This document shows positions 5,887-42,263 of a stretch of DNA of 45,436 nt, in pieces; the first letter of the stretch is position 1; each line of letters begins with the position of its first letter. Origin of the DNA: Candidatus Dojkabacteria bacterium (lineage in GTDB: Bacteria > Patescibacteriota > Dojkabacteria > JAOAGR01); NCBI GenBank assembly GCA_025999155.1, contig AP026679.1, positions 466,699-512,134 of the forward strand. Direction: 5' to 3'. Under the pieces are notes generated by a model, which searched no databases, had not been told where the DNA came from, and was given only the letters and a program-made list of their open reading frames with translations. A program made the translations under genes and the position numbers.

Positions 5887-6959
5887 CCTTCTATAATTCC
5901 GCTTGCAACGACTTCGTCTCCCATGTAAATACATCCGAATTGTCCTGGAGCTACAGCTCTTTGTGGTTCAAAAAATATTAATTTCGTTTGGTCACGGCTG
6001 TTTCTACAGAGAATGATTAATGCATTAGATGGTTTTTGACGATAACGAAGCGACACTTCTGCCTGTAATGAAGCACATGTATATTTATCAAATTCAGGGT
6101 TAATCACATGTATATCTCGTAAATACACTTCTCGGCTGAAAAGGGCAGGATTATCTTTTCCTTTTGCTACAAATAATGTGTTTGTTTGAGGGTCTTTTTT
6201 AACCACAAACCAAGGTCCGCCTGGCAAGCCCATTCCTTGTCTTTGACCTATGGTATAAAACCATATGCCATCATGCTCCCCTAATTCTTTTTGACTGTCT
6301 ATATCTATTATTTTTCCTTTTTTTTTACCTAATTCTTTTTCTATAAAAGTTCGTACATTAATTTTGCCTACAAAACATATACCTTGGCTATCCTTTCTAT
6401 AAGCATTAGGGAGTCCTAATTCGGCAGCTATTTTTCTTACTTGAGGTTTAGTTAGGTGTCCTATTGGAAACTCTACGTTTGCTAATTCTTCTTGGCTAAG
6501 CCTACAAAGAAAGTAAGATTGATCTTTGTTTTGGTCTATTCCTTTCAGCAATCTATATATGCCCCTATCGTATACTACTCGCGCATAGTGTCCTGTGGCT
6601 ATCTTATCAACTCCTAATTCGTGAAATACTTTTTTACGAAATACATTAAATTTAATCTCGCTATTACACAAAATATCAGGATTGGGTGTACGTCCGGATT
6701 TATATTCTGCAAAAAAATATTCAATTACTCTCTTTCTATACTCTAATTCAAAGTTATAAGAGAGAAATTCAATCCCAATATGATCTGCTACTTCTCTGGC
6801 TGATTTCAGATCTTCTTCCCAAGGACAATCACCCTCAATTCCGAAATCATCAGACCAATTCTTCATAAAAACTCCTACAACCTCATGACCTTGTTGTTTA
6901 AGTAGTGCAGCAGCGACTGCAGAGTCGACTCCACCAGATAAACCTACAGCTATTTTCAT
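5883..6959 (-). CDS. mnmA: tRNA-specific 2-thiouridylase MnmA
   Basis: PP-loop VGLSGGVDSAVAA, then GRTPNPDILCN and KDSQGICFVG. 358 aa. The convergent 4-nt overlap with the miaA-like gene is at the stop codons. Confidence 0.9.
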   Translation of the reverse strand: MKIAVGLSGGVDSAVAAALLKQQGHEVVGVFMKNWSDDFGIEGDCPWEEDLKSAREVADHIGIEFLSYNFELEYRKRVIEYFFAEYKSGRTPNPDILCNSEIKFNVFRKKVFHELGVDKIATGHYARVVYDRGIYRLLKGIDQNKDQSYFLCRLSQEELANVEFPIGHLTKPQVRKIAAELGLPNAYRKDSQGICFVGKINVRTFIEKELGKKKGKIIDIDSQKELGEHDGIWFYTIGQRQGMGLPGGPWFVVKKDPQTNTLFVAKGKDNPALFSREVYLRDIHVINPEFDKYTCASLQAEVSLRYRQKPSNALIILCRNSRDQTKLIFFEPQRAVAPGQFGCIYMGDEVVASGIIEG

Positions 6960-7091
6960 TTACAGATTATACAATAGGGAAAAACCTAAAGTAATCAATC
7001 CATGATAAGGTCATATTTTAAAAAAGTTAATATATTTCTAGAATTCAATTTGTGGCCTTAAAAATTTAGAATATTGTTTTTATGTTTGCCT

Positions 7092-8486
7092 TTATTTGAT
7101 CAGATATCCCTCTAATACAAATTCTTTTGCTTGTTGTATTTTTACATACACAAAATTTCCTATTAAATGGGAACAGTCCTCGTCGCATTCAATAAAAACA
7201 TCCTTGCCATGAGTAGTTCTTGCAATTAAACCTTCTTTTGTACCTTTTTTTTGCTGATATACTAAAGCTTTTTGTGTGGTTCCTATTAATCTTTTATTAT
7301 TCTCTAACGCACCTTTTTTAAGTACTTCTTCTAATAATTGCTTACGTTGTGCTTTGATCGCTACTGGTACATCATCTTTATAGAATTTGGCTGCAATAGT
7401 ACCCTGCCTCTGTGAGTATTCTGCAATATATATTTGGTCAAATTTTATTTCTTCACAAACTTTTAGAGTTTCTTCGAATTCCTTATCTGTTTCTCCACAA
7501 AATCCAACAATTATATCGGTAGTGATTGCCACATTAGGTATTGTACGACGTATAAAATCAACTTTTTCTTTAAATTCACTAACGGTGTAATAACGATTCA
7601 TCCTTTTCAGTACAGAATCTGAACCTGACTGCAAAGCAAAGTGCACTTGTTTAGCGATATTGTCCTTTTGAGCTATTACTTCAATAAGTCTGGGATTGAT
7701 ATCATATGGGTGCGAACTTGTAAATCTAAGCCAAAAATCACCCTCAATATCAGCTAAGGATTCCATTAAGTAAGGAAAATCTAAATACTCTTTTGGAATT
7801 AAGTTTTGATCTCTATATTTTGGAATTGGTATTTTTAAGTGCCCCGTCGTATCACTTCTCCAAGAATTCACATTTTGTCCTAATAAAGTAATTTCTTTGT
7901 AATTGTTTGTAACCAGAGACTGTACCTCATTATAAATTTCTTCATATGGTCTATACACCTCTTCTCCTCTTGTAAACGGTACTATACAGAAAGTACAAAA
8001 CTTATTGCACCCTGTAGATATAGGAACAAATGCTTGAAATGTAGAATTATACTTTGGCTTTATTGATAGATATTCTACAGGATTTATATTGACTTTTTTA
8101 CCTAAAATTTCTGGTAATTTATGAATTTCGCTGATTTCAATAACTATATCAAGAGCCGGGATTTGTTTTTTAAGAGTTTCTTGATATTTTTGCTGGTATA
8201 GAAGTGATTTTTTCTGTCCTTGTCTTATGTCCCTCTTCGCCATACATCCCGTAAGTACAGTTTTTATTTCTGGCTTTTTTGACTTCAATTTTTGTAAGTT
8301 ACGCATTAATCCGTAAACCCTATCTTCAGCTTTTTGTCTGACAGAACATGAATTGACAACATATAAGTCCGCAATCTCATATTCTGATGCTTTCTTATAA
8401 CCCATCGATTCACAAACTGCAGCAATACGTTCAGAATCGGAATGATTCATCTGGCAACCAAAAGTTTTGATAGAATATGTCTTCAT
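7092..8486 (-). CDS. miaB: tRNA methylthiotransferase MiaB (radical SAM)
   Basis: N-terminal TFGCQMNHSDSE, radical-SAM CNKFCTFCIVP and a C-terminal TRAM-like region. The ATG at 8486 is preferred over the TTG at 8492. Confidence 0.85.
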   Translation of the reverse strand: MKTYSIKTFGCQMNHSDSERIAAVCESMGYKKASEYEIADLYVVNSCSVRQKAEDRVYGLMRNLQKLKSKKPEIKTVLTGCMAKRDIRQGQKKSLLYQQKYQETLKKQIPALDIVIEISEIHKLPEILGKKVNINPVEYLSIKPKYNSTFQAFVPISTGCNKFCTFCIVPFTRGEEVYRPYEEIYNEVQSLVTNNYKEITLLGQNVNSWRSDTTGHLKIPIPKYRDQNLIPKEYLDFPYLMESLADIEGDFWLRFTSSHPYDINPRLIEVIAQKDNIAKQVHFALQSGSDSVLKRMNRYYTVSEFKEKVDFIRRTIPNVAITTDIIVGFCGETDKEFEETLKVCEEIKFDQIYIAEYSQRQGTIAAKFYKDDVPVAIKAQRKQLLEEVLKKGALENNKRLIGTTQKALVYQQKKGTKEGLIARTTHGKDVFIECDEDCSHLIGNFVYVKIQQAKEFVLEGYLIK

Positions 8487-31146: not shown

Positions 31147-32445
31147 TTATTCATTACTTTGTTTGCTGATTTTAAGGTCAAATGTTGGGAGGTTTTCGTG
31201 ACTAGATCTCATTGTATTATCTAGGCTATGTGTAAGTGTATGATTTTTCAATATCTTTCTTTTGTCGTTAAAATAAACTATAGTGATTATAATTCCATAG
31301 ATAATAGTTAAAACAAGGGCTACTAATAGAGCAATATTCAAGGAGTTTTTATTATCATCTTTATTTTGATTTGTATCAGAAGCAGTTGGCGTCAATGTAA
31401 CATTATTTTGGTCCTTTTCCACTTTATAAGTGCTAGTTACAATATTACCAGCTTGGTCTTTAGCTTGTATTATTATTTCTTTAGCGTTGTTTGGTATCGT
31501 TACTTCAGAATTTTGTTCTCCTAATTCTTGACCATCTACGATTACATAATATTTTAATTTTGATTCGGTATTATCGTGAGTTGAAAAATATAATTTATAT
31601 GTACCATCTTCTTTTTGTATTAGTGTTGGAGTAAAAGGATTTGGGGGAGTACTATCTATCCTGATCGCGAAATGAGTAGTTGGCCCCCATCCAACACTAT
31701 TCTTTGCTCGAATATGAAAATAATTGATACCATCAGGGACTTGATTGTATGTAATAGTATCAATGGTACCGTTGATTTCTTCGCCTGGTATTGTATCTGG
31801 TGATGCATCTAATAGATAACTAAACCCGACAACATCAACATCTTTTTTCCAGTTTAGAATTACTGTATTAGATTGATACCACTCATCTTGATTCGTATGA
31901 GTGGTAGAGGATACTTCTACTGCATTAGGCAAAGGTTTTGGCGTTGGGGTTGGAGTCGCTGTAGGAGTTGGTTGAGGCCTTATGATATTAAAAGATCTAC
32001 TTCCACTACCATTTTCAGATCCGGCACCAAGTCCGGTCCCATCAATCTTTCCAGATACTGTTATTGATCCAGTTGTTGCCTTATTTGGGGCTCTTAAATT
32101 TATTGTTAAGACTGGTTTTGATCCCGATGCTGAGCTACCTAATAAAGCACCAGCAAAGGATATAGTATTACCAGCTACAGAGGGACCCGAGACGGCAGTC
32201 CAACCTGGACCTACACTGGTTCCCACATATGTAAATTCTGTAAACGTTACATTTAAATCTACAGCATTATAAGCTGCATCTCTATTAGCTGATATTGTGA
32301 TAGTGACATTTTGTCCGGTGTTGATCGTTGATGGACCTAATATTATAAAACTTGCTGCAGCTTTAACATCCGTGTTTAGTAAGATTGAGGCCCCGGTAAT
32401 TGAAAGTAAGCATATAAATATTGTAAGAGTTTTTCGTATTAACAT
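31147..32445 (-). CDS. Membrane-anchored surface protein with an N-terminal cohesin-like domain
   Basis: Signal peptide MLIRKTLTIFICLLSITGASILL. Cohesin-like beta-sandwich pattern: GQNVTITISANRDAAYNAVDLNVTFTEFTYVG...ISFAGALLG...VLTINLRAPNKATTGSITVSG. PT linker PTPTATPTPTPKP (about 31924-31977). Two Ig-like domains ending in IDSTPP. C-terminal TM IALLVALVLTIIYGIIITIVYF plus a cytoplasmic tail. Starts 4 nt downstream of the protease gene. Confidence 0.6.
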   Translation of the reverse strand: MLIRKTLTIFICLLSITGASILLNTDVKAAASFIILGPSTINTGQNVTITISANRDAAYNAVDLNVTFTEFTYVGTSVGPGWTAVSGPSVAGNTISFAGALLGSSASGSKPVLTINLRAPNKATTGSITVSGKIDGTGLGAGSENGSGSRSFNIIRPQPTPTATPTPTPKPLPNAVEVSSTTHTNQDEWYQSNTVILNWKKDVDVVGFSYLLDASPDTIPGEEINGTIDTITYNQVPDGINYFHIRAKNSVGWGPTTHFAIRIDSTPPNPFTPTLIQKEDGTYKLYFSTHDNTESKLKYYVIVDGQELGEQNSEVTIPNNAKEIIIQAKDQAGNIVTSTYKVEKDQNNVTLTPTASDTNQNKDDNKNSLNIALLVALVLTIIYGIIITIVYFNDKRKILKNHTLTHSLDNTMRSSHENLPTFDLKISKQSNE

Positions 32446-32449
32446 AGTT

Positions 32450-34996
32450 TTACAGATCAGTCTTTTGCCAATTTGCTGCGAGTATACTGAGATCTGACAA
32501 ATTTGTCACATTATCTGAGTTTGTGTCCGATTGTGGATTATTTTTATTCCAGTTTGCAGCGAGAATACTAAGATCACTAATATTGACTATATTGTCACAA
32601 TTAAAATCTGCCTTGGATCTACGTCTATCACAAAGGTAAGTGATCACAAAAGTACGAGAAGACTCTCTTATGTTACCGGCTTTGTCTATAGCTTGTATGG
32701 TAACGTTGTAGTTACCATCTGGCAGAGAGTTAAGTGTGTGTGGAGAAGATACATTTTGAAAGTTGCTACCGTTTACAGAAATTCGATAATTATCAATACC
32801 TGATATGTTATCTGTAGTCGCAAACGTTAATTCAGCGTTATTATTATTGATAGTTACATTTATGTTAAAAGATTCCGGAGGAGTTGCGTCTAGGTACAGA
32901 GTAAATTTATTTGTATCTCGAATGTTGCCTGCTGCATCCTTTGATCTAACAAACCACTCATAAATACCTTCAGCAAGATTAGTATTGGGCGTAAAAGTGT
33001 TACTTTGCAAATTAGTAAAAACTGGATTGTTGTCTAAATAAATCTCATAAGTTAATCCTGGGTGGTTATCTATTGATTCGGACCAATGAAATGATGGCTT
33101 TAATTCTTTTGTTGCGAGACCATTTGATGGACTTATTATAGAAAAATTTGAAGGAGGAGTTCTATCTATTACGATATTAGTCGCTGTCGCTGTTGAAACG
33201 TTTCCATAAAAATCTTCTACTCTTAAAATTATGTTGTAAGTGCCTTCAGGTAATATTGTAGAATCGACTGACATTAATAAACCAGAGCTAACAGACCCTC
33301 TACCTGCAAATTGTCTAATTATCTCTCCGGATGAGATTGATTGGAAAGATATAGTGTATAAGTAAATATCATCATCCGATGCACTCCCCGTGATGTTAAT
33401 TTGACTTTTATGAAAAGTGTCGGATAAGCCTGTGATTGATGCTGTCGGCGGTGTAGTGTCTACTGGCATATCTGGATACTCAAGCGATTCTTTTGCCCTC
33501 ATTTTTCCAAATCCGGTTTCATTATCGAATCCTGTAGTATTTAAGTCTAAAACTCCTTTGATTAACGCATATCGCACCTCTTTAGCTGTCCATGTGGGAT
33601 GTAATGAAAATATAAGACCAGCAAGACCTGAAACATGTGGAGTAGACATAGATGTTCCGGAAACTGGTTGATAGTTCGTAGAAATAGTATTACCCCCTGT
33701 AGTTAGTATAATTTGTCCATATGACGTTATATCAATTCTTTTTCCATGATTAGAAAAGTAAGATTTGTTATCATTGTAATCTATCGATCCGATGCTTAAA
33801 GCTCTAGTACAACCACTAGGGTAGTACTTGGATGCATCATCATTGTCATTACCTGCAGCAGATACAACAAGTACCCCGTTATCCCATGCATAATCTACAG
33901 CGTCTTGTAGGATTTGCGAATAACCTTCTCCACCCAAACTTAAGTTTATAACTTTTGCTCCATTATCTACAGCATAATGTATAGCCGCAACTATATCTAA
34001 ATCATACGAATCTCCAGCATCATTAACTACTTTTATAGACATTATTTTGCAAGACCAACATATACTAGCTATGCCTATATTGTTATTACTTACTGCAGCA
34101 CCTATTATTCCAGCGACAAAAGTACCGTGCCCAAAAGTATCATGTATATTTGCATCTGCTGGTTCACTAACTAAATTTACACCGAATATGTCGTCTTTGT
34201 AGCCATTAGGAGGGGAATTATCATCATTATCGTTAAGAATAGGCGAACCTGGTGATATTATGTCTATGTAATTTATAGTACTATTACCATCAACATCTAA
34301 GTTGTTTGTTAGAAAGTAGTTTATTAGTTCTTGACTATCTACTTGATTATCTGAGTTTGAGTCTATACTGGGAAATAATGCCGTTGGGATTTCTTCTTGA
34401 TTTATCCATAGATTAGTGTGGCCCCAAGTAGTAGGCCCTTGTTTATTAACTATGTCGGGACGCTTAAGATTTATTCCTGAATCTATTACCGCTATAATCG
34501 TGTCAGGAGACCCTGTTGTTATATTCCATGCTGAATTGCTGTCTGATAATGGAGTAAATCCTGAACTTCTGAGATTCCATTGATCGTATTTACCGGATAA
34601 AAAAGTATTTTGAGAGTTAAAATATGGATCATTAGGTGACGATGATACTCGTCGTAAGAAATTTTTATACACACCTAAAACTTTATAATTTTTTTGTAAT
34701 TTAAGTAGTTCTTCTGTATTAGATGCTTTTAATAAGTACCAATCATTATCAGATACATTCAAAACAGTTTTTAGGTTAGTATCATGAATATTTTTATCCG
34801 CCTTTTTCTCTATTTTTACTATATATCCGTCGAATTTTACTTTATCGGTGGGACTTGGTTGTAGGAACGTATTAAAATTATTAGGATTATTTAATGTGTT
34901 TATTGACGCAAAAGTAGCATTATTAAAATTATTAACAGGGTACACTAAAGCAATAAGACATATTATTACATTCAATATGTTTCGTAATAAGGCCAT
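32450..34996 (-). CDS. Secreted subtilisin-like (S8) serine protease with Ig-like domains and a C-terminal dockerin-like module
   Basis: Catalytic triad contexts AVIDSGIN (Asp), HGTFVAGIIGA (His) and SGTSMSTPHVSGLAGLI (Ser). The signal peptide starts from the ATG at 34996 (MALLRNILNVIICLIALVYP). Three domains are bounded by DTTPP / DRTPP / DATPP. The C-terminus has a duplicated Ca-loop plus helix, DFNCDNIVNISDLSILAANW and DTNSDNVTNLSDLSILAANW (about 32453-32640). Confidence 0.85.
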   Translation of the reverse strand: MALLRNILNVIICLIALVYPVNNFNNATFASINTLNNPNNFNTFLQPSPTDKVKFDGYIVKIEKKADKNIHDTNLKTVLNVSDNDWYLLKASNTEELLKLQKNYKVLGVYKNFLRRVSSSPNDPYFNSQNTFLSGKYDQWNLRSSGFTPLSDSNSAWNITTGSPDTIIAVIDSGINLKRPDIVNKQGPTTWGHTNLWINQEEIPTALFPSIDSNSDNQVDSQELINYFLTNNLDVDGNSTINYIDIISPGSPILNDNDDNSPPNGYKDDIFGVNLVSEPADANIHDTFGHGTFVAGIIGAAVSNNNIGIASICWSCKIMSIKVVNDAGDSYDLDIVAAIHYAVDNGAKVINLSLGGEGYSQILQDAVDYAWDNGVLVVSAAGNDNDDASKYYPSGCTRALSIGSIDYNDNKSYFSNHGKRIDITSYGQIILTTGGNTISTNYQPVSGTSMSTPHVSGLAGLIFSLHPTWTAKEVRYALIKGVLDLNTTGFDNETGFGKMRAKESLEYPDMPVDTTPPTASITGLSDTFHKSQINITGSASDDDIYLYTISFQSISSGEIIRQFAGRGSVSSGLLMSVDSTILPEGTYNIILRVEDFYGNVSTATATNIVIDRTPPSNFSIISPSNGLATKELKPSFHWSESIDNHPGLTYEIYLDNNPVFTNLQSNTFTPNTNLAEGIYEWFVRSKDAAGNIRDTNKFTLYLDATPPESFNINVTINNNNAELTFATTDNISGIDNYRISVNGSNFQNVSSPHTLNSLPDGNYNVTIQAIDKAGNIRESSRTFVITYLCDRRRSKADFNCDNIVNISDLSILAANWNKNNPQSDTNSDNVTNLSDLSILAANWQKTDL

Positions 34997-35067
34997 TATA
35001 TCTTCGTCATTATAACATTGTAAAAATTTTGTTTCAATCAAGGATTTTTTTATATATACTTGCTCGT

Positions 35068-36141
35068 ATGAATCAGAAGCCAAGTGATTATTTATTTTTA
35101 GACTCTGATAAGTTTATAAAAGATCTACAATTTGAGCTATGCAATGACATTAAACGAGTTGTTTTCATATATTTTAGATTAGTACATCAAGATTATTTTA
35201 AGAAAATATATCCTTTACTACTTTTTGCGCTCGAACATGGGGCCAAGGTAGAATTTTATTTGGATGGTATTTTTTCTAAGTCAAATCTAGTAAGTGGTCT
35301 ATTATTACCTCCGATTTTTGGGCGTCGTCGTAAAAAACAAGCAAAAGCATCAAGAGCACTACAAAAAGCATTTGATAATTTATCAAAACGAGGGGCTAAA
35401 ATTAATTACTTTAATATACCACAGAATTTTTTGAAAAAATTTTTACTGCAATTCTCTGGAAGAGATCACCGTAAATTTGTTTATGTAGAAAAAAATAATG
35501 GTAAATCTATTACGTATTTTGGGGCGTGTAATTTAGTTAGGTCGGGCACACATGATTTTATGATCAAAATACTGGATTCTGATTTGAGTCATCGATTACT
35601 TGTTGAGAATTTGAATGTATGGCATAACCCTTGTACAGAAGATAAAGTTATAGAAGTATCGGATGAAAAGCGAATTTTGATTGATTCTGGTGCTATATTT
35701 CAGTCTGTAATTTGGAAGACCGGAATTAGTAATATCCGTAATGCTAGAAATAATATTATTTTTGTATCACAAATTCCTCCAGAACCTCCATTATTATACG
35801 AATTTTTTCTTGCTCGTATGAGAGGAGTAAAAGTTCAGATTCTCATTCCTGCATTTAAGCATAAAAATATCTCGAGTTTCCCATACATAATAGCATTTTT
35901 ACTAGCCAGATTAGTGTGTAGTATACTTAGTATACAGCTAATACATGTTAAGCCTGGTTATACACATGCAAAAATTCTGATTTGTGATAATCGTGTCATT
36001 TTAGGATCACATAATATGTCATTTATTGGGGTGGCTGCTGGAACTATTGAGATGAGTATTGATACGAGTGATGCTAATCTATTGAATGCTGCTTTGCGGT
36101 TTACGCATAGATTGCGTGGTTTTGCAAACGGGTTTCACTAA
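35068..36141 (+). CDS. Phospholipase D superfamily protein (two HKD motifs; cardiolipin/phosphatidyl-transferase-like)
   Basis: HKD-like motif 1 is HRKFVYVE...GACN. Motif 2 is the canonical HAKILICDNRVILGSHN. The ATG at 35068 is preferred over the TTG at 35029, which would overlap the protease start. Confidence 0.7.
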   Translation: MNQKPSDYLFLDSDKFIKDLQFELCNDIKRVVFIYFRLVHQDYFKKIYPLLLFALEHGAKVEFYLDGIFSKSNLVSGLLLPPIFGRRRKKQAKASRALQKAFDNLSKRGAKINYFNIPQNFLKKFLLQFSGRDHRKFVYVEKNNGKSITYFGACNLVRSGTHDFMIKILDSDLSHRLLVENLNVWHNPCTEDKVIEVSDEKRILIDSGAIFQSVIWKTGISNIRNARNNIIFVSQIPPEPPLLYEFFLARMRGVKVQILIPAFKHKNISSFPYIIAFLLARLVCSILSIQLIHVKPGYTHAKILICDNRVILGSHNMSFIGVAAGTIEMSIDTSDANLLNAALRFTHRLRGFANGFH

Positions 36142-36147
36142 CTTATA

Positions 36148-36777
36148 ATGCAGCACAAAGGTAAATTGAAAGAAAAAGTATTCATATTTGATTTCGATGG
36201 TACGATAATCGATTCGATTGACGATATTGTATTTATACTATCAAAATATATACCTAATCTTACAAGAAACACATTAAGACAAATACTGGTGGATGTATAT
36301 ATTCGTCATAGTACTTCTGCCCTTTTCAAAATGTTTTATGCTGAAATTTTGATTTTTTTGCATGTCAATCAGGTTTTAAAGAATATAGTTGAAGATACTG
36401 GTAAACTGCCATTAATTCATGATATTCAAGATGTTCTAATTGATTTACATAAAAATGGAGTTAAGCTTTTTGTTGTAAGTTCGAATTTTACAAAGAATAT
36501 TCAGGATTATTTGATATCAAAAAATTTAGATGTTTTTGAGAGAGTAGAGGGCATTGGCATAATATTCGGTAAAGCACGATATATAAAAGCTATTGCAAAC
36601 ACATATTCAGACAGTGATATTTATTATATTGGAGATGACATAAGAGACGTATTAGCTGCAAAAAAAGCGTGCGTCAAGTCCGTTGCTGTCACCTGGGGAT
36701 TAAGTACTAAAGAAGACTTTCAATATGTAGATCCGGATTATATTGTTGATCAACCAACTGATTTACTAAGAATTTGA
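36148..36777 (+). CDS. HAD-superfamily phosphatase (phosphoglycolate phosphatase-like)
   Basis: Motif I FIFDFDGTIIDS, motif II VVSSN, motif III/IV K...YYIGDDIRDVLAAKKA. Confidence 0.75.
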   Translation: MQHKGKLKEKVFIFDFDGTIIDSIDDIVFILSKYIPNLTRNTLRQILVDVYIRHSTSALFKMFYAEILIFLHVNQVLKNIVEDTGKLPLIHDIQDVLIDLHKNGVKLFVVSSNFTKNIQDYLISKNLDVFERVEGIGIIFGKARYIKAIANTYSDSDIYYIGDDIRDVLAAKKACVKSVAVTWGLSTKEDFQYVDPDYIVDQPTDLLRI

Positions 36778-37722
36778 TTCCCTACATTTTTTTATCAGAT
36801 ATTGAATTACAATGTCTGCTATATTTACGCCGCTGTAATATGAAGTAAGCGTTATTTGAGGTGATAGATTAACTTCTAAGATATAAAATTTACCTGATTT
36901 TCGGTCTTGAATTATATCAACTCCTGCAAATTCTATCTTCAATGTCTTTGCAGCTTTTATTGCCATCTCTTTTAATTCCTGGGGTATTTCAACAGGGATA
37001 GCTGCTGCTCCTTTACTCATATTAGATACAATAGAGTCTTTTGGTCTGATCTTGAAAATTGAAGCTATTACTTCATCCCCTAATACGACTATACGATAAT
37101 CACCATCATTATCGATAAATTCTTGAAAAATATTTGGGTAAAAAATCGGTAAATTATAATTTTGCAGGAAACCTAGCAAATCTTCTCTTGTCCTAAATAA
37201 ATACGTGTCTCGGCCTTTTGATCCATCTGCAGGCTTGAGAAATAGTGGAAAATGTAATTTATCTATATTTTTTAGAACTTGGTCTTTGCGGAAAAAAGCA
37301 TAAGTAGGGATAATTGGTAATCCTGCTTGCATAAGTGTATAAGCTTGTATTACTTTTGTGTTGGTCTGTGATCCACTGATAATGAAACTATCAAATACTG
37401 GCTTACCTAATCTATAGTATATATGACTTGCAATCGTACAAAGTTCCGCAAATATACGCACTTTAGTATTTGATGCTTTGTGAATTAATTCTGAAATATC
37501 CCTAAAAATAAATAAATCCTGTTCTTGTATATCCACATCGTTACCTGATACACTAAAACCCGAGTTATTATCTATACTCAAAATTATTTTGCCTTTTGGG
37601 ATATTATTCAAGATTACATTAGCCTTTTTTGCTGCTTTTACTAATAAAGTAATGGAATTATCTTCTTCTGTTTTCTGGTTCGTTTTACTTCCTATAAGAC
37701 AAAATTTTAACTTTTTTGACAT
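36766..37722 (-). CDS. ATP-grasp ligase, RimK-like (divergent paralog 1)
   Basis: PLFLKPADGSKGRDTYLF, GDYRIVVLGDEVIASIFK and FAGVDIIQDRKSGKFYILEVNLSPQ fit the RimK/ATP-grasp pattern. Confidence 0.7.
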   Translation of the reverse strand: MSKKLKFCLIGSKTNQKTEEDNSITLLVKAAKKANVILNNIPKGKIILSIDNNSGFSVSGNDVDIQEQDLFIFRDISELIHKASNTKVRIFAELCTIASHIYYRLGKPVFDSFIISGSQTNTKVIQAYTLMQAGLPIIPTYAFFRKDQVLKNIDKLHFPLFLKPADGSKGRDTYLFRTREDLLGFLQNYNLPIFYPNIFQEFIDNDGDYRIVVLGDEVIASIFKIRPKDSIVSNMSKGAAAIPVEIPQELKEMAIKAAKTLKIEFAGVDIIQDRKSGKFYILEVNLSPQITLTSYYSGVNIADIVIQYLIKKCRESNS

Positions 37723-37837
37723 AATTTTTAAGGAAAATTTTAGTTTATATGAACAAAAGTTTGAAAATATAAATTTTTAAATATCGAGTAAAATAAATCA
37801 TATCTATATCGTGGATTTTATTATATAATTGCTTATT

Positions 37838-38722
37838 ATGAAAGTTGGTTTATATCAATCTAAAGGAGATGCTTCATCACTTGAAGAATTTGAAGTATAT
37901 AATGCTTTGAATCGTAGGCATGATGTAGAAGAAGTTATTTTTCTATCACCGGGAAAGTTTAAATTGATGATAGAATCGTCTCGTTTATATTTAAATTACG
38001 GGGAATTCAATATCGAACCTGGTATTTTTGATGTTCTAATTATACGTGGAGACTTTGCAAGTGTTACAAACGCTATAGTGCTTGCCGATTACTGTCGAAG
38101 TATTGGTATTAAAGTATTTGACAATAATTTAACAAGAATTAAGTATCTAATAAACAAAAAAGCAGACTATGTAAAATTAATAAATGCTGGTATTAGAGTG
38201 CCTAATACTTACTTTTTTTCTAGCTTGGATAGATTTAAAGAAGCAAATTTAAAGTTTCCTCTCGTGATGAAACCACCACATACTGGCCAAGGCTACAATG
38301 TAATGAAAGTTGAAAGTTACGATGATGTCGAAAGAATATTGCTAGAACTTGATAAGAGTATTCAAAAGTTTATGTTTCAGGAGATGATCGAATATGAGCA
38401 TGATCTACGTGTTTTAACTGCAGGCGATGAGGTTGTTGGATGCATGAAACGTATTCCTCCAGAGGGTGATTTTCGAGCGAATTTTTCGATTGGGGGTAGT
38501 GTAGAGCCTTTTCAAGTGAATGATCGTATTAAAGAGTTGGCTATCAAAGCTATGAAAGCTTGTGATCTTTTGGTTGCAGGCGTTGATATTTTAATTGATA
38601 AAAAGGGAGAGATGTGGCTATTAGAAACAAATCATACTCCAGGTATTGAAGGTATAACTCAAGCTTTAGGAAGACAAGTAGCAGATAGATTTACCGAGTT
38701 TATGATAAGGCATGCATGCTAG
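37838..38722 (+). CDS. rimK: ATP-grasp alpha-L-glutamate ligase, RimK family (paralog 2, close to canonical RimK)
   Basis: PLVMKPPHTGQGYNVMKVES and HDLRVLTAGDEVVGCMKRIPPEGDFRANFSIGGSVEPF...VAGVDILIDKKGEMWLLETNHTPGIEGI are collinear with E. coli RimK motifs. ATG at 37838. Confidence 0.8.
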   Translation: MKVGLYQSKGDASSLEEFEVYNALNRRHDVEEVIFLSPGKFKLMIESSRLYLNYGEFNIEPGIFDVLIIRGDFASVTNAIVLADYCRSIGIKVFDNNLTRIKYLINKKADYVKLINAGIRVPNTYFFSSLDRFKEANLKFPLVMKPPHTGQGYNVMKVESYDDVERILLELDKSIQKFMFQEMIEYEHDLRVLTAGDEVVGCMKRIPPEGDFRANFSIGGSVEPFQVNDRIKELAIKAMKACDLLVAGVDILIDKKGEMWLLETNHTPGIEGITQALGRQVADRFTEFMIRHAC

Positions 38723-38804: not shown

Positions 38805-38881
38805 GCGCCCGTAGCTCAGCTGGATAGAGCACCTGTCTTCGGAACAGGGTGTCGGGAGTTCGAATCTCTCCGGGCGTGCCA
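38805..38881 (+). tRNA. tRNA-Arg (anticodon UCG), CCA encoded
   Basis: Manual cloverleaf. Acceptor GCGCCCG/CGGGCGT, D stem GCTC/GAGC, anticodon stem CCTGT/ACAGG with loop CTTCGGA, T stem GGGAG/CTCTC with loop TTCGAAT. Confidence 0.9.
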
Positions 38882-39200: not shown

Positions 39201-39240
39201 AAAAATAAATAAAACCAGATGCCATAAAAAAAGCATCTGG
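39201..39240 (-). terminator. Rho-independent terminator downstream of the FN3 surface-protein gene
   Basis: On the minus strand: CCAGATGC-TTTTTTTATG-GCATCTGG followed by TTTTATTTATTTTT. Stem arms at 39233-39240 and 39215-39222. Confidence 0.7.
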
Positions 39241-39279
39241 CCAGAAAGTCACAAAGTAAATGAAATAATTTAAATTAGT

Positions 39280-39915
39280 TTAGTAAGAAACCTGTCTTTT
39301 GTTACCGCACCATAAACTTCCATCATTTTCCCGACTGCAAGCTATATAAGTATATGTACGGCCTGCTTCTACGTTTGTATCCATATAAGACTTTAAGTTT
39401 CCACCTCTAGCGATCTCAAAAAAATTGGTTCCATCTATGGATTTGTATAGTACGTAATATGATAGATTATTACTTTTACAGTTAGTCCAAGACAATGATA
39501 CGGATGTAGAATTTCTTGAAGCACTTAAAGCTAATTCATCAGGATCTGTTGAATTGTAAGATAAAGGTTGTCCTGCTGGATAGATAAGAGTTGGCTTTAC
39601 AGTTGGAGTGGGAGTAGGGGTCTGCATCTGGGTCGGTACATTAGTTGGTTCTGGAGTAGTTTCTGAGGTTGGTTCTGGAGTAGCTTCTACAGTAGCTGTC
39701 GGTGTAGATTCAGTAACCGGATCTATTGCAGTTAATTGATTATCATCAGCGGCATTTTCTGATACCTGTGTTTCCTGTTTTTTATCCTCCTGGTTATTGG
39801 ATGTAACGTATGTATAACCTACATAACCTGCAGTAGCTACTGCTACACTTGATACAGCAACCACAGCACCGAAGCCGAATTTTGAACTGAGTATAGTTGT
39901 TATTATGTTTGACAT
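39280..39915 (-). CDS. Membrane-anchored surface protein with a PT-rich linker and a fibronectin type III-like domain
   Basis: N-terminal TM FGFGAVVAVSSVAVATAGYVGY. PT/PE-rich linker at about 39592-39714. FN3-like region: LSASRNSTSVSLSWTNCKSNNLSYYVLYKSIDGTNFFEI...VEAGRTYTYIA. ATG at 39915. Confidence 0.65.
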   Translation of the reverse strand: MSNIITTILSSKFGFGAVVAVSSVAVATAGYVGYTYVTSNNQEDKKQETQVSENAADDNQLTAIDPVTESTPTATVEATPEPTSETTPEPTNVPTQMQTPTPTPTVKPTLIYPAGQPLSYNSTDPDELALSASRNSTSVSLSWTNCKSNNLSYYVLYKSIDGTNFFEIARGGNLKSYMDTNVEAGRTYTYIACSRENDGSLWCGNKRQVSY

Positions 39916-39979
39916 ATTCACTGTTAACAAATCCAGCTTATTGTGTCAACGTCAACATATTATGATAAAATAATAGACT

Positions 39980-41371
39980 TTAATAATTAAAACTCATTAC
40001 GTGTTTATATAACATCATTTGTAGTCTTTTAAATGGATAGATCTTATTAATGTAAGTTTGGGGTTGGTGGTAGCCTCTTTTTTTAAAGTCATATACCTCA
40101 TTGACACTAATTTTTCCAAGAAATAAATCGGTGAATTTTTCATGATTTGTTAAATATGGCCAAATTGTCCGATTTCCTCTCAGGTAAATGCTAATTTTCG
40201 GATTAGATAAGCCTATTCTAGGAGTATGGAAATCTGCATAAAGTCTGGTTAATAGATTTTGTATTATTGTGTGTTCATTGATCGTTGTATGTGGAAAAAT
40301 CTCTTTTTTAAGTTTGATTAATTTTTTTATAAACTTATATGTCTCATAAGGGGTTTTCACTCTCGAAATTTCTAGAGCAATTACTCTAAGATAGAGATCA
40401 AACAATCTGTATATGTCATATTGGTCAGATTCGCCGAAAATATTTTGTTCTAAATATGTACATATGCCTTCTTCCGTCAATAAATAATCTTTAGTACCTA
40501 GACTAAGTAATTTTAAGCATTTACCTGTTTTGGATACTGTTTTTTCTGCACTTAGACTTCTAAGCAAGTGTCCGAGTATTTCATGTGCAATAATCTCAAT
40601 CAGTCTTTCACTTGAAATTGATAAATTTTGTGGAATATAAATCTTTTTAAGATTAGGTAACACAGCAAAAAGATAATTTTCATTGATTTCTACACTAATC
40701 CCATTTATACCTTCTGCATCTAGAAGATTTTGAATAAGTATTTGTACTTCCTCCGAAGAGAAAGTTTTTCTTGGTAAGAGATTTATCTTTTTTAGTCTTT
40801 GTTCGTGTAATTGTGTTATTTTATCGAAATCAATTTCTTTATGTGTAATATGAAACAGTGATACTAAGGTATCGATTATCTGTTTAGAATACTGAGAATT
40901 TTTTATTCGTCCCTTGTGTAATAGATAATTGATAAATGAAGCAAATTCAGCAATGAATGCTAAATTATCTTTATGAGAGTATGAATATTTTTCATCAAGA
41001 AGATCAACTAATTCATCTTTATGTAGTAATTTGGCTTTATGTATTTGTATATCAAGTTTTTCACTCTGGATACGCTCGAGGTACTTTTTGTGGATAAATT
41101 TTTGTTTTGGTTTTCTAAGGATTTTTGATTCAAGTTTTTCTAATTTTCTTTGTTTTTTTTCTAGAGCTTCTAGTAGTTCTAATTTTTCTTGCTTATTAAG
41201 GTTAAATAAGGCCGATTTTACTTCAACATGTTTGTCTTTTATAACAATCCTTGCATCTTTAGATTTAAAGATTTTTCGCTTATATTGATGTATTTTGAGA
41301 AATTTGTTGTACCAGTATTTGTCAATACAAATCTGATCGTTATTCATTGTTTGTGAGATATTTTTCGGCAT
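39980..41371 (-). CDS. DUF1704 / MATCAP-like metallo-carboxypeptidase candidate (atypical HExxxH)
   Basis: IIAHEILGHLLRS gives an H-E-x-x-x-H motif plus Arg. About 30 aa later comes LLTEEGICTYLEQ (compare the TEEGLA/QEGLA motif). Further downstream is IYLRGNRTIWPYL. The N-terminal region is K/E-rich and coiled. Overlaps the trxB stop by 32 nt, or 8 nt from the alternative ATG at 41347. Confidence 0.55.
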   Translation of the reverse strand: MPKNISQTMNNDQICIDKYWYNKFLKIHQYKRKIFKSKDARIVIKDKHVEVKSALFNLNKQEKLELLEALEKKQRKLEKLESKILRKPKQKFIHKKYLERIQSEKLDIQIHKAKLLHKDELVDLLDEKYSYSHKDNLAFIAEFASFINYLLHKGRIKNSQYSKQIIDTLVSLFHITHKEIDFDKITQLHEQRLKKINLLPRKTFSSEEVQILIQNLLDAEGINGISVEINENYLFAVLPNLKKIYIPQNLSISSERLIEIIAHEILGHLLRSLSAEKTVSKTGKCLKLLSLGTKDYLLTEEGICTYLEQNIFGESDQYDIYRLFDLYLRVIALEISRVKTPYETYKFIKKLIKLKKEIFPHTTINEHTIIQNLLTRLYADFHTPRIGLSNPKISIYLRGNRTIWPYLTNHEKFTDLFLGKISVNEVYDFKKRGYHQPQTYINKIYPFKRLQMMLYKHVMSFNY

Positions 41372-42263
41372 CTATGGCTGCTTTACATCCGGAACCAGCA
41401 GCAGTAATAGCTTGTCTATAAATGTGGTCAAAAACATCACCAGCCACGAATACACCTTCTACACTAGTCATGGTCTGATTTGGTCCATAAGTCTTTATAT
41501 ACCCCTTTTCATCTAGCTCTAATTGTCCCTCTAGAAATTTGGTATTTGGTTCATGGCCTATGGCTACAAATACCCCATCTAGGTCTAACTGAGTTTGTAA
41601 ACCATCTATTGTTGATTGTAATGTAACGGATTGGACTTTATTTTCGCCATTGATTTTGACAACTACAGTATTCCAAATAATTTCGATTTTTTTATTTGCA
41701 AATACTTTTGTCTGCATTGCGTGGCTCGCACGAAATGTATCTCTACGATGGATAATATATACCTTATTAGCAAATCTTGTCAGGAATAGAGCTTCTTCCA
41801 TAGCGGTATCACCTCCTCCTACGACAGCAACTATTTTATTTTTAAAAAATGCACCATCACATGTAGCACAGGTACTTACACCCCTGCCACGAAATTTCTC
41901 TTCATTTTCGACATTTAGCCATTTTGCAGAAGCTCCTGTTGCTATAATGATTGCCTTAGCTTTCAAGACATTATCGTCTAAATACACTATTTTCTCTCTA
42001 GGGCTAGAAAAGTCTACTTTGACTGCATCCTTATCTATAAATCTCCCTCCAAACCTCTCTGCTTGTTTACGCATTTTATTCATTAATTCGGGACCTAATA
42101 TACCATCCTCAAATCCAGGATAATTTTCAACTTCAGTTGTCATCATTAATTGACCTCCTGGTTGATAGCCCGCAATTACCAAGGGTTGTAGATTTGCACG
42201 TGCCGTATATATTGCTGCAGTAAGGCCTGCGGGACCTGAGCCAATGATAATAATGTTTTCCAT
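41340..42263 (-). CDS. trxB: Thioredoxin reductase
   Basis: FAD motif GSGPAGLTAA, redox CATCDG, NADPH motif GGGDTAMEEA. 307 aa. Confidence 0.93.
   Translation of the reverse strand: MENIIIIGSGPAGLTAAIYTARANLQPLVIAGYQPGGQLMMTTEVENYPGFEDGILGPELMNKMRKQAERFGGRFIDKDAVKVDFSSPREKIVYLDDNVLKAKAIIIATGASAKWLNVENEEKFRGRGVSTCATCDGAFFKNKIVAVVGGGDTAMEEALFLTRFANKVYIIHRRDTFRASHAMQTKVFANKKIEIIWNTVVVKINGENKVQSVTLQSTIDGLQTQLDLDGVFVAIGHEPNTKFLEGQLELDEKGYIKTYGPNQTMTSVEGVFVAGDVFDHIYRQAITAAGSGCKAAIDAEKYLTNNE

Follow-up and report, generated by a model that had tools for sequence, protein, structure and literature searches.

Results

A peptidase gene between trxB and a membrane-protein gene

The subject of this work is a gene for a putative metallopeptidase, referred to below as the peptidase, in a 45,436-nucleotide stretch of DNA from a Candidatus Dojkabacteria bacterium (assembly GCA_025999155.1, contig AP026679.1, positions 466,699 to 512,134). 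This whole stretch is called the window throughout. The gene lies on the minus strand directly downstream of trxB, which encodes thioredoxin-disulfide reductase, and is followed by a gene for a small membrane-anchored protein and by a terminator-like hairpin; two genes for RimK-type ATP-grasp ligases are found further along (Table 1). A first-pass annotation, made from the sequence alone, had named the protein as a MATCAP/DUF1704-like peptidase and had suggested that it removes C-terminal residues, possibly from a tailed protein substrate. The analyses described here place the peptidase in that family and point to the trimming of residues added by ATP-grasp ligases as its most likely role, a reading that is weighed against its alternatives in the Discussion.

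Table 1. Position of the peptidase gene, its motif codons and its neighbours in the window
Feature	Position	Strand	Remarks
MATCAP/DUF1704-family metallopeptidase gene	39980..41371	(-)	463-aa open reading frame (ORF) from ATG 41371
HEILGH codons, residues 263-268 (H263-E264-x-x-x-H268)	40568..40585	(-)	two predicted metal ligands and the predicted catalytic Glu
EEG motif codons, E300-E301-G302	40466..40474	(-)	predicted third metal ligand
trxB, thioredoxin-disulfide reductase	41340..42263	(-)	TIGR01292 412 bits, cutoff 343
Membrane-anchored protein with weakly FN3-like C-terminal domain	39280..39930	(-)	216 aa; 49 bases downstream of the peptidase
Intrinsic-terminator-like hairpin and T-run	39203..39242	(-)	end of the trxB-peptidase-FN3-like unit; stem 39242-39213, 11 pairs
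RimK-type ATP-grasp ligase B (RimK_B)	37829..38722	(+)	PF08443 112.7 bits; convergent with the peptidase unit
RimK-type ATP-grasp ligase A (RimK_A)	36766..37722	(-)	PF08443 98.9 bits; divergent from ligase B
tRNA-Arg(TCG)	38805..38881	(+)	separates ligase B from the terminator that closes the peptidase unit
S8 subtilase (877 aa) and adjacent 432-aa protein	31147-35083	(-)	Ig-like/FN3 domains in the subtilase
PLD-like (PLDc_2) protein and HAD hydrolase	35029-36777	(+)	between the S8 subtilase and RimK_A
ORF of at least 930 aa	42647-45436	(+)	divergent from trxB; runs past the window end

The peptidase is a divergent member of the MATCAP family

Membership in the family was examined with profile hidden Markov models. 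The Pfam profile PF08014 (MATCAP, formerly DUF1704) scored 37.6 bits on the peptidase, against a gathering cutoff of 27 (E = 1.7e-9), in agreement with the first-pass assignment, and the match spans positions 108 to 257 of the 365 profile positions, which is the central part of the profile. The annotation had also named TIGR02421, the profile of the proteobacterial "QEGLA" proteins, and here the outcome went the other way: the score was 32.2 bits, so far under the curated cutoff of 338.65 that the peptidase is not a member of that equivalog. The motif itself reads TEEGIC in the peptidase, not QEGLA, and the consensus of its clade is EEG[IL]A.

Relatives were sought by an exhaustive profile search over 1.84 billion representatives, word-indexed homolog searches having given just 3 and 9 proteins before. 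The exhaustive search found 381 relatives of the peptidase. Its own clade comprises 19 relatives at E<1e-30 with lengths of about 450-470 aa, and a gap in the scores separates this clade (E<1e-37) from generic DUF1704 proteins (E>1e-19). In an alignment of 17 clade members, with identities as low as 23%, the residues H263, E264, H268, R271, E300, E301, G302, E308 and Q309 are invariant. Alignment of the clade with 13 canonical DUF1704 proteins by hhalign gave a probability of 99.95% and an E-value of 3e-38 over 391 columns, and homology to the canonical proteins therefore covers essentially the whole protein. One clade member carries the NCBI label 'tyrosine/phenylalanine carboxypeptidase domain-containing protein'. 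Judged by its sequence, the peptidase is a new, divergent member of the known family PF08014, and all computational tests of membership agree on this point.

The HExxxH-type motif reported in the first-pass annotation can be read directly in the protein: HEILGH is followed immediately by LLR, the Arg of which is R271. The TEEG motif (residues 299-302) begins 37 residues past the first His and forms part of the segment LLTEEGICTYLEQ, which corresponds to residues 297-309. A chance match can be dismissed because of the Pfam E-value together with the invariance of the motif residues in the 17-member alignment. Inspection of the sequence revealed neither a signal peptide nor a transmembrane segment. 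An alternative start codon, ATG 41347, would yield a protein of 455 aa and is the one used in a 79%-identical ortholog (P0002); residues 1-11 of the longer form are disordered in the structural model described below.

The predicted structure resembles human MATCAP

An AlphaFold2 (AF2) model of the peptidase was computed from the clade alignment, with a predicted local distance difference test (pLDDT) score of 89.1 and a predicted template modelling (pTM) score of 0.90. When the model was compared with the Protein Data Bank (PDB) by Foldseek, the top five matches were all human MATCAP chains (7Z5G and 7Z6S, with 7Z5G the best), with E-values of 3e-6 to 2e-5, a probability of 1.00 and target-normalised template modelling (TM) scores of 0.48-0.52. 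The next matches were other helical gluzincins, namely DUF885, neurolysin (M3), the T. cruzi M32 carboxypeptidase and ACE, and these were much weaker (E from 0.01 to 2). The structural comparison with the MATCAP catalytic domain that the first-pass annotation had called for thus returned human MATCAP as the best PDB match, and the HExxxH and EEG motifs could be aligned to their human counterparts: the clade profile places HEIxxH...R on human HEIGTHYLR and EEG on human EEGLA. The match of this profile to the 7Z5G sequence is not significant (E = 0.5), and it served for motif alignment and is no evidence by itself. A phmmer search of the peptidase against PDB sequences gave no match.

In human MATCAP, E281 of the HEIGTH motif is needed for activity, and the EEG motif has been named a putative third metal-binding site (PMC10499314). 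In the modelled peptidase, H263 and H268 of HExxxH and E301 of EEG would be the metal ligands, and E264 is the predicted catalytic base. We predict with high confidence that the peptidase is an active metallopeptidase of the MATCAP family.

DUF1704 genes recur beside ATP-grasp genes beyond the clade

Because the note on this DNA had pointed to the two ligase genes near the peptidase and had proposed a survey of co-occurrence between DUF1704 and RimK-like ATP-grasp genes, the surroundings of DUF1704 genes were analysed in other genomes. Every ORF of the fetched loci was searched with several ATP-grasp queries, and an ORF was counted as near if it lay within 3 kb of the DUF1704 gene. In the first set of loci, 37 ATP-grasp ORFs were near and 3 were far (153 kb of near DNA and 252 kb of far DNA), which corresponds to an approximately 20-fold drop in density past 3 kb; without the five fusion loci of this set, the counts were 32 near and 3 far. 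A metagenome set, which partly overlaps the first, gave 14 near and 2 far ATP-grasp ORFs in 74 kb and 88 kb of DNA, respectively. An ATP-grasp gene was found within 3 kb in 13 of the 22 genome loci, which are not phylogenetically independent.

At least six distinct DUF1704/ATP-grasp architectures were distinguished, ATP-grasp-MATCAP fusions among them. (a) In Moraniibacteriota/Parcubacteria, a co-directional operon contains genes for a 7TM_transglut protein, an ATPgrasp_ST-RimB-like fusion protein, two to three RimK-like proteins, YdjC, DUF1704 and PBP1A; the RimB-like part of the fusion is a 'Zn_protease' domain, and the penicillin-binding protein (PBP) is of class A. (b) A Saccharibacteria locus has DUF1704 followed by 7TM_transglut and then ATPgrasp_ST, and (c) in other Saccharibacteria loci RimK-like genes are located 71 nt to 1.5 kb from DUF1704. 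(d) An ATP-grasp gene lies 44 nt downstream in a Woesearchaeota archaeon. (e) Three single polypeptides are fusions of ATPgrasp_ST and MATCAP, one of them named 'alpha-L-glutamate ligase-like protein/uncharacterized protein (TIGR02421 family)' by JGI; the contigs of two were read, and both fusion genes adjoin a 7TM_transglut gene and are close to Mur ligase/MurJ genes. (f) On a Sinorhizobium plasmid (S. medicae pMl3, CP140910; L052 5311-8252), a GshB-type ATP-grasp ligase gene, annotated 'glutathione synthase', begins 12 nt after the gene for a 627-aa MATCAP-domain protein, with an FGase gene also near. In addition, the Vibrio sp. HDW18 plasmid NZ_CP049914 (L051 5119-7110) encodes a fusion of FGase (N-formylglutamate amidohydrolase-like) and MATCAP. 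The proposed co-occurrence is therefore seen across the Candidate Phyla Radiation (CPR) and beyond, gene fusions included. This context outside the clade, not the local adjacency in the window, is the main functional signal.

Several other features of these loci were recorded. One of the RimK-like ligases in a DUF1704 operon (L014:6899-7855) passes the Pfam TTL cutoff with 32.3 bits against 20.1, a match that is suggestive only because it covers just 33 residues. In Kaiserbacteria-type loci, DUF1704 is preceded on the same strand by a DsbA-like thioredoxin-fold gene (Thioredoxin_4/DSBA), with 5-6 nt between the two (L013:8507-9271, L015:8511-9260 and L016:8511-9260), and this is a second thiol-redox neighbour, independent of trxB. 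One of these loci, from a Kaiserbacteria metagenome-assembled genome (MAG), has two full-length DUF1704 paralogs in tandem (L013:9278-11997). Four proteins of 840-1545 aa (P0046, P0047, P0069 and P0080) have a STAND NTPase (AAA_16/NACHT) and TPR fused to a C-terminal MATCAP domain, some with a helix-turn-helix (HTH) or BTAD domain, in a layout like that of a sensor-effector protein. These fusions raised the idea of a role in defence, which was rejected for the peptidase: there was no meaningful PADLOC match and no sign of a defence island in the window.

RimK-type ligases near the peptidase in the window and its clade

The window has two RimK-type ligases where the first-pass annotation had placed them, about 1.3 kb from the peptidase. 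A distance of 1,258 nt separates the end of ligase B from the stop codon of the peptidase, and ligase A is 2.26 kb away. TIGR00768 scores 128.7 bits on ligase A and 137 bits on ligase B against a cutoff of 143.4, and both proteins also exceed the GSH-S_ATP cutoff. Orthologs of ligase B are close to the peptidase in the clade loci L001, L003, L005 and L006, and those of ligase A in L001 and L003. Four clade loci extend far enough downstream to judge, and each has two or three RimK paralogs no more than 3 kb from the peptidase.

The order shared by the window, L003 and L006 is ribosomal-protein genes, S8 subtilase, a 431/432-aa protein, RimK genes, peptidase, trxB and pth. Since the region is collinear among the clade genomes, the local RimK adjacency is weak evidence on its own and possibly reflects inherited synteny. 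A metagenome scan yielded one further clade locus, a 95%-identical contig of 2.5 kb, and with this one addition function and inherited synteny are not separable within the clade.

The S8 subtilase and the adjacent 432-aa protein, which has no Pfam family, form a conserved pair beside the RimK genes in the window and in L003 (8526-12296). The PLD-like and HAD genes are also present in L001 and not in L003, and in the window the 3' end of the HAD gene overlaps that of RimK_A. In L006, from a Dojkabacteria MAG, a 207-aa MATCAP-like ORF (6743-7366, minus strand) that scores 25.5 bits, slightly below the cutoff, is placed between the peptidase and the RimK genes. The long ORF at the end of the window has a higher G+C content (0.40) and looks like a repetitive surface protein.

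The proposed trxB-peptidase transcription unit

That the peptidase gene overlaps the trxB stop codon, as first reported, is seen in the sequence with either start codon: the overlap with the TAA at 41340-41342 is 32 nt from ATG 41371 and 8 nt from ATG 41347, and the TIGR01292 score identifies trxB as genuine. The peptidase would share a transcript with trxB, and its translation is probably coupled to that of trxB. In all seven clade loci with upstream sequence (the window, L001, L002, L003, L005, L006 and L030), trxB is located directly upstream on the same strand, where it overlaps the peptidase gene or is at most 40 nt off. The coupling to trxB is conserved in the clade. A redox switch in the peptidase was considered and rejected, as no Cys is invariant in the clade.

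The third gene of the proposed unit fared less well. The 216-aa protein starts with a hydrophobic anchor, which is followed by a Pro/Thr/Glu-rich linker and then by a C-terminal domain, so its anchor and its position stand, and the label FN3 (fibronectin type III) is the doubtful part, as fn3 is sub-threshold on the C-terminal domain (E = 4.3e-4; 20.9 bits, cutoff 25). A single-sequence AF2 run on this domain gave a pLDDT of 47, too low to use. An ortholog of the FN3-like gene occurs in L001 only, and other genes replace it in L003, L005 and L006. With its occurrence limited to the window and L001, the nearest relative, the gene does not count as a conserved member of the operon; it is lineage-specific and therefore probably a passenger in the transcription unit. 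Thus, of the trxB-peptidase-FN3 unit that had been proposed, the conserved portion is trxB and the peptidase. The last residues of the FN3-like protein are ...KRQVSY (window 39283-39300, minus strand). The terminal Tyr is kept in the 77%-identical ortholog (L001:2876-3517) and is probably irrelevant because the domain is predicted to be outside the cell. The terminator described after the gene was found as a hairpin followed by a T-run. No RNA runs contain the locus; the DNA runs that contain it are hot-spring and microbial-mat metagenomes.

Discussion

We propose that the peptidase is most likely a metallocarboxypeptidase of the cytoplasm that cuts back the residues which ATP-grasp ligases attach, and we put the probability of this reading at about one half. 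According to this proposal, RimK-class ligases, such as the two located at 1.3-2.3 kb, would extend a protein or peptide at its C-terminus with alpha-linked amino acids, of which glutamate is the most plausible, and the peptidase would act as an 'eraser' that removes the added residues singly from the C-terminal end, so setting the length of the tail. What we infer here is that the peptidase is an exopeptidase, that it works together with the ligases beside it in this genome, and what kind of substrate it acts on. Parallels are known. The human and Tetrahymena members of the family are carboxypeptidases that take Tyr or Glu off the C-terminus of tubulin tails; they also shorten chains of polyglutamate, which TTLL ATP-grasp ligases make (PMC10499314). 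In Pseudomonas, the glutamates with which RimK extends ribosomal protein S6 are taken off again by RimB, and hybrids of the two proteins are known (PMC11957791; PMC10092738).

A number of observations weigh against the proposal. The literature searched contained no functional study of any bacterial DUF1704/MATCAP member. No ATP-grasp gene was found within 10 kb in 9 of the 22 genome loci, nor in 15 of the 21 metagenome loci, many of which are on short contigs. The window ligases are slightly under the RimK-family cutoff and far under that of the S6-ligase equivalog. In the clade, the ligases are encoded on the other strand from the peptidase or in units of their own, and in the window a tRNA gene and a terminator stand between them and the peptidase; the collinearity of the window, L003 and L006 extends over the whole region, housekeeping genes included. 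A search of the window for candidate substrates found no ORF with an acidic C-terminal tail, and rpsF, the gene for S6, is absent from the window.

One could envision other scenarios for the peptidase. It might trim small glutamyl or thiol peptides, possibly a low-molecular-weight thiol, made by a ligase of the GshB/RimK type, and not protein tails. Such a role would account for the thiol-redox neighbours, with trxB upstream in seven of seven clade loci and a DsbA-like gene just before DUF1704 in the Kaiserbacteria-type loci, and it is consistent with the GshB-type and FGase genes beside the Sinorhizobium MATCAP-domain gene, with the FGase-MATCAP fusion of the Vibrio plasmid, with the GSH-S_ATP matches of the window ligases and with the structural neighbours M3, M32 and ACE, which are oligopeptide-limited enzymes. 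We nevertheless consider it unlikely: a Cys is invariant nowhere in the clade alignment, the window shows no glutamate-cysteine ligase or other thiol-biosynthesis gene, those family members that have been characterised by experiment work on protein C-termini (PMC10499314), and the trxB link is confined to one clade and may reflect operon history. Another scenario is that of a stand-alone housekeeping enzyme for peptide turnover, the proximity of the RimK genes being inherited gene order without functional meaning. The collinear clade region with its housekeeping genes, the separate transcription of ligases and peptidase here and the many DUF1704 loci that have no ATP-grasp neighbour all fit this scenario. 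It is, however, rather improbable in view of the recurrence of the ATP-grasp association in unrelated architectures, phyla and fusions and the steep fall in ATP-grasp ORF density past 3 kb; moreover, the gene content between peptidase and ligases varies among the clade loci, and the ligases still lie within 3 kb.

A third possibility is suggested by other CPR lineages, in which DUF1704 operons contain 7TM_transglut, ATPgrasp_ST, YdjC and class A PBP genes, and by the fusion proteins, whose genes adjoin 7TM_transglut close to Mur ligase and MurJ genes. The peptidase could belong to an envelope pathway of the Rlo type, in which a 7TM 'inactive transglutaminase' membrane protein handles a peptide or polymer made by an ATP-grasp ligase, with the peptidase keeping this product in check or recycling it. 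In P. aeruginosa, mutations in rloB and rloC, which encode the 7TM and ATP-grasp proteins, compensate for losing the Rlo proteases (PMC12239564), and the neighbours of the peptidase in the window include the membrane-anchored FN3-like protein, the S8 subtilase with Ig-like domains and the PLD-like enzyme. For the peptidase of the window, though, we think this highly improbable, as its ligases are RimK-type and not ATPgrasp_ST, the peptidase has no export signal, and neither 7TM_transglut, ATPgrasp_ST and YdjC nor a PBP was seen among the window neighbours scanned. The last scenario takes its cue from the NCBI name of TIGR02421, 'flavohemoglobin expression-modulating QEGLA motif protein', and would make the peptidase a non-enzymatic regulator. 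We take PA3697 to be a QEGLA-family protein. It is named among the modulators of fhp in PMC8070244. We would be surprised if this scenario applied to the peptidase, which lies far outside TIGR02421 at 32 bits; an effect on expression can also arise indirectly from peptidase activity, and the invariance of the catalytic motif residues across the clade favours an active enzyme over a regulator.

We return to the proposal of a ligase-associated carboxypeptidase and to how it compares with known systems. The human proteins MATCAP1/TMCP1 (KIAA0895L) and TMCP2 (KIAA0895), represented by the structures 7Z5G, 7Z5H and 7Z6S, share PF08014, the HExxxH...R motif and EEG with the peptidase, and human MATCAP opposes the ATP-grasp ligases TTL/TTLL by the same eraser logic as that proposed here. 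They differ in that the identity between the peptidase and human MATCAP is 14-16% in the structural alignment, with a target-normalised TM score of about 0.5, and in the apparent co-transcription of the peptidase with trxB. Since the window shows no tubulin gene, the substrate must also differ from that of human MATCAP. The proteobacterial TIGR02421 QEGLA proteins are homologous from end to end, with the N-terminal D..W region and the C-terminal GK motif included; some of them adjoin ATP-grasp ligases, and those examined have N-terminal extensions (an FGase domain in Vibrio).

The RimK-RimB system of Pseudomonas likewise combines a ligase with a dedicated peptidase, and the ATP-grasp-MATCAP fusions are a parallel to its known hybrids. 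The window shares with it a ligase of the RimK family beside the peptidase, with two PF08443 proteins, whereas the peptidase is a gluzincin, and no retropepsin-like RimB (PF05618) was found among the window neighbours scanned. The RloABC system of P. aeruginosa consists of the ATPgrasp_ST protein RloC, the 7TM inactive transglutaminase RloB and the secreted retropepsin-like RloA (PMC12239564). In other CPR lineages, DUF1704 genes or fusions hold the protease position in the same type of operon. Scanning of the window neighbours revealed no 7TM_transglut or ATPgrasp_ST, and RloA is secreted, unlike the MATCAP-type peptidase, which is cytoplasmic by prediction. The M32/M3/M2 'cowrin' gluzincins (T. 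cruzi MCP-1, neurolysin and ACE) and DUF885 have a mostly helical gluzincin fold in common with the peptidase and are set apart from it by an HExxH motif in place of HExxxH and by the lack of a sequence-family match.

On a broader view, it is possible, and we offer this tentatively, that RimK/TTL-class ligases and MATCAP carboxypeptidases constitute an ancient prokaryotic writer-eraser module, present as adjacent genes, operons and fusions in CPR bacteria, DPANN archaea and Proteobacteria, both halves of which were inherited by the eukaryotic tubulin cycle (TTL/TTLL versus MATCAP/TMCP), and which here would tail a protein reversibly, perhaps with control linked to thioredoxin. No account of a link between bacterial DUF1704 and ATP-grasp genes was found in the searchable literature, where an earlier mention is possible. 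It was not until 2022-2023 that the eukaryotic members of the family were recognised as the enzymes missing from tubulin detyrosination and deglutamylation, and such a module would plausibly place the origin of both the writer and the eraser of the tubulin code in prokaryotes. The recurrence of bacterial DUF1704 proteins as partners of ATP-grasp amidoligases, sometimes fused to them, suggests a concrete function for these proteins in trimming ligase-added tails; if this is true, a second, unrelated protease family joins the RimK-RimB and Rlo paradigm. That two or three RimK paralogs and the peptidase are kept in genome-reduced CPR bacteria implies an important function that has so far been invisible. 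A role in tail trimming, if borne out, would give a widespread orphan family a function and tie bacterial ligase-peptidase pairs to the eukaryotic tubulin code.

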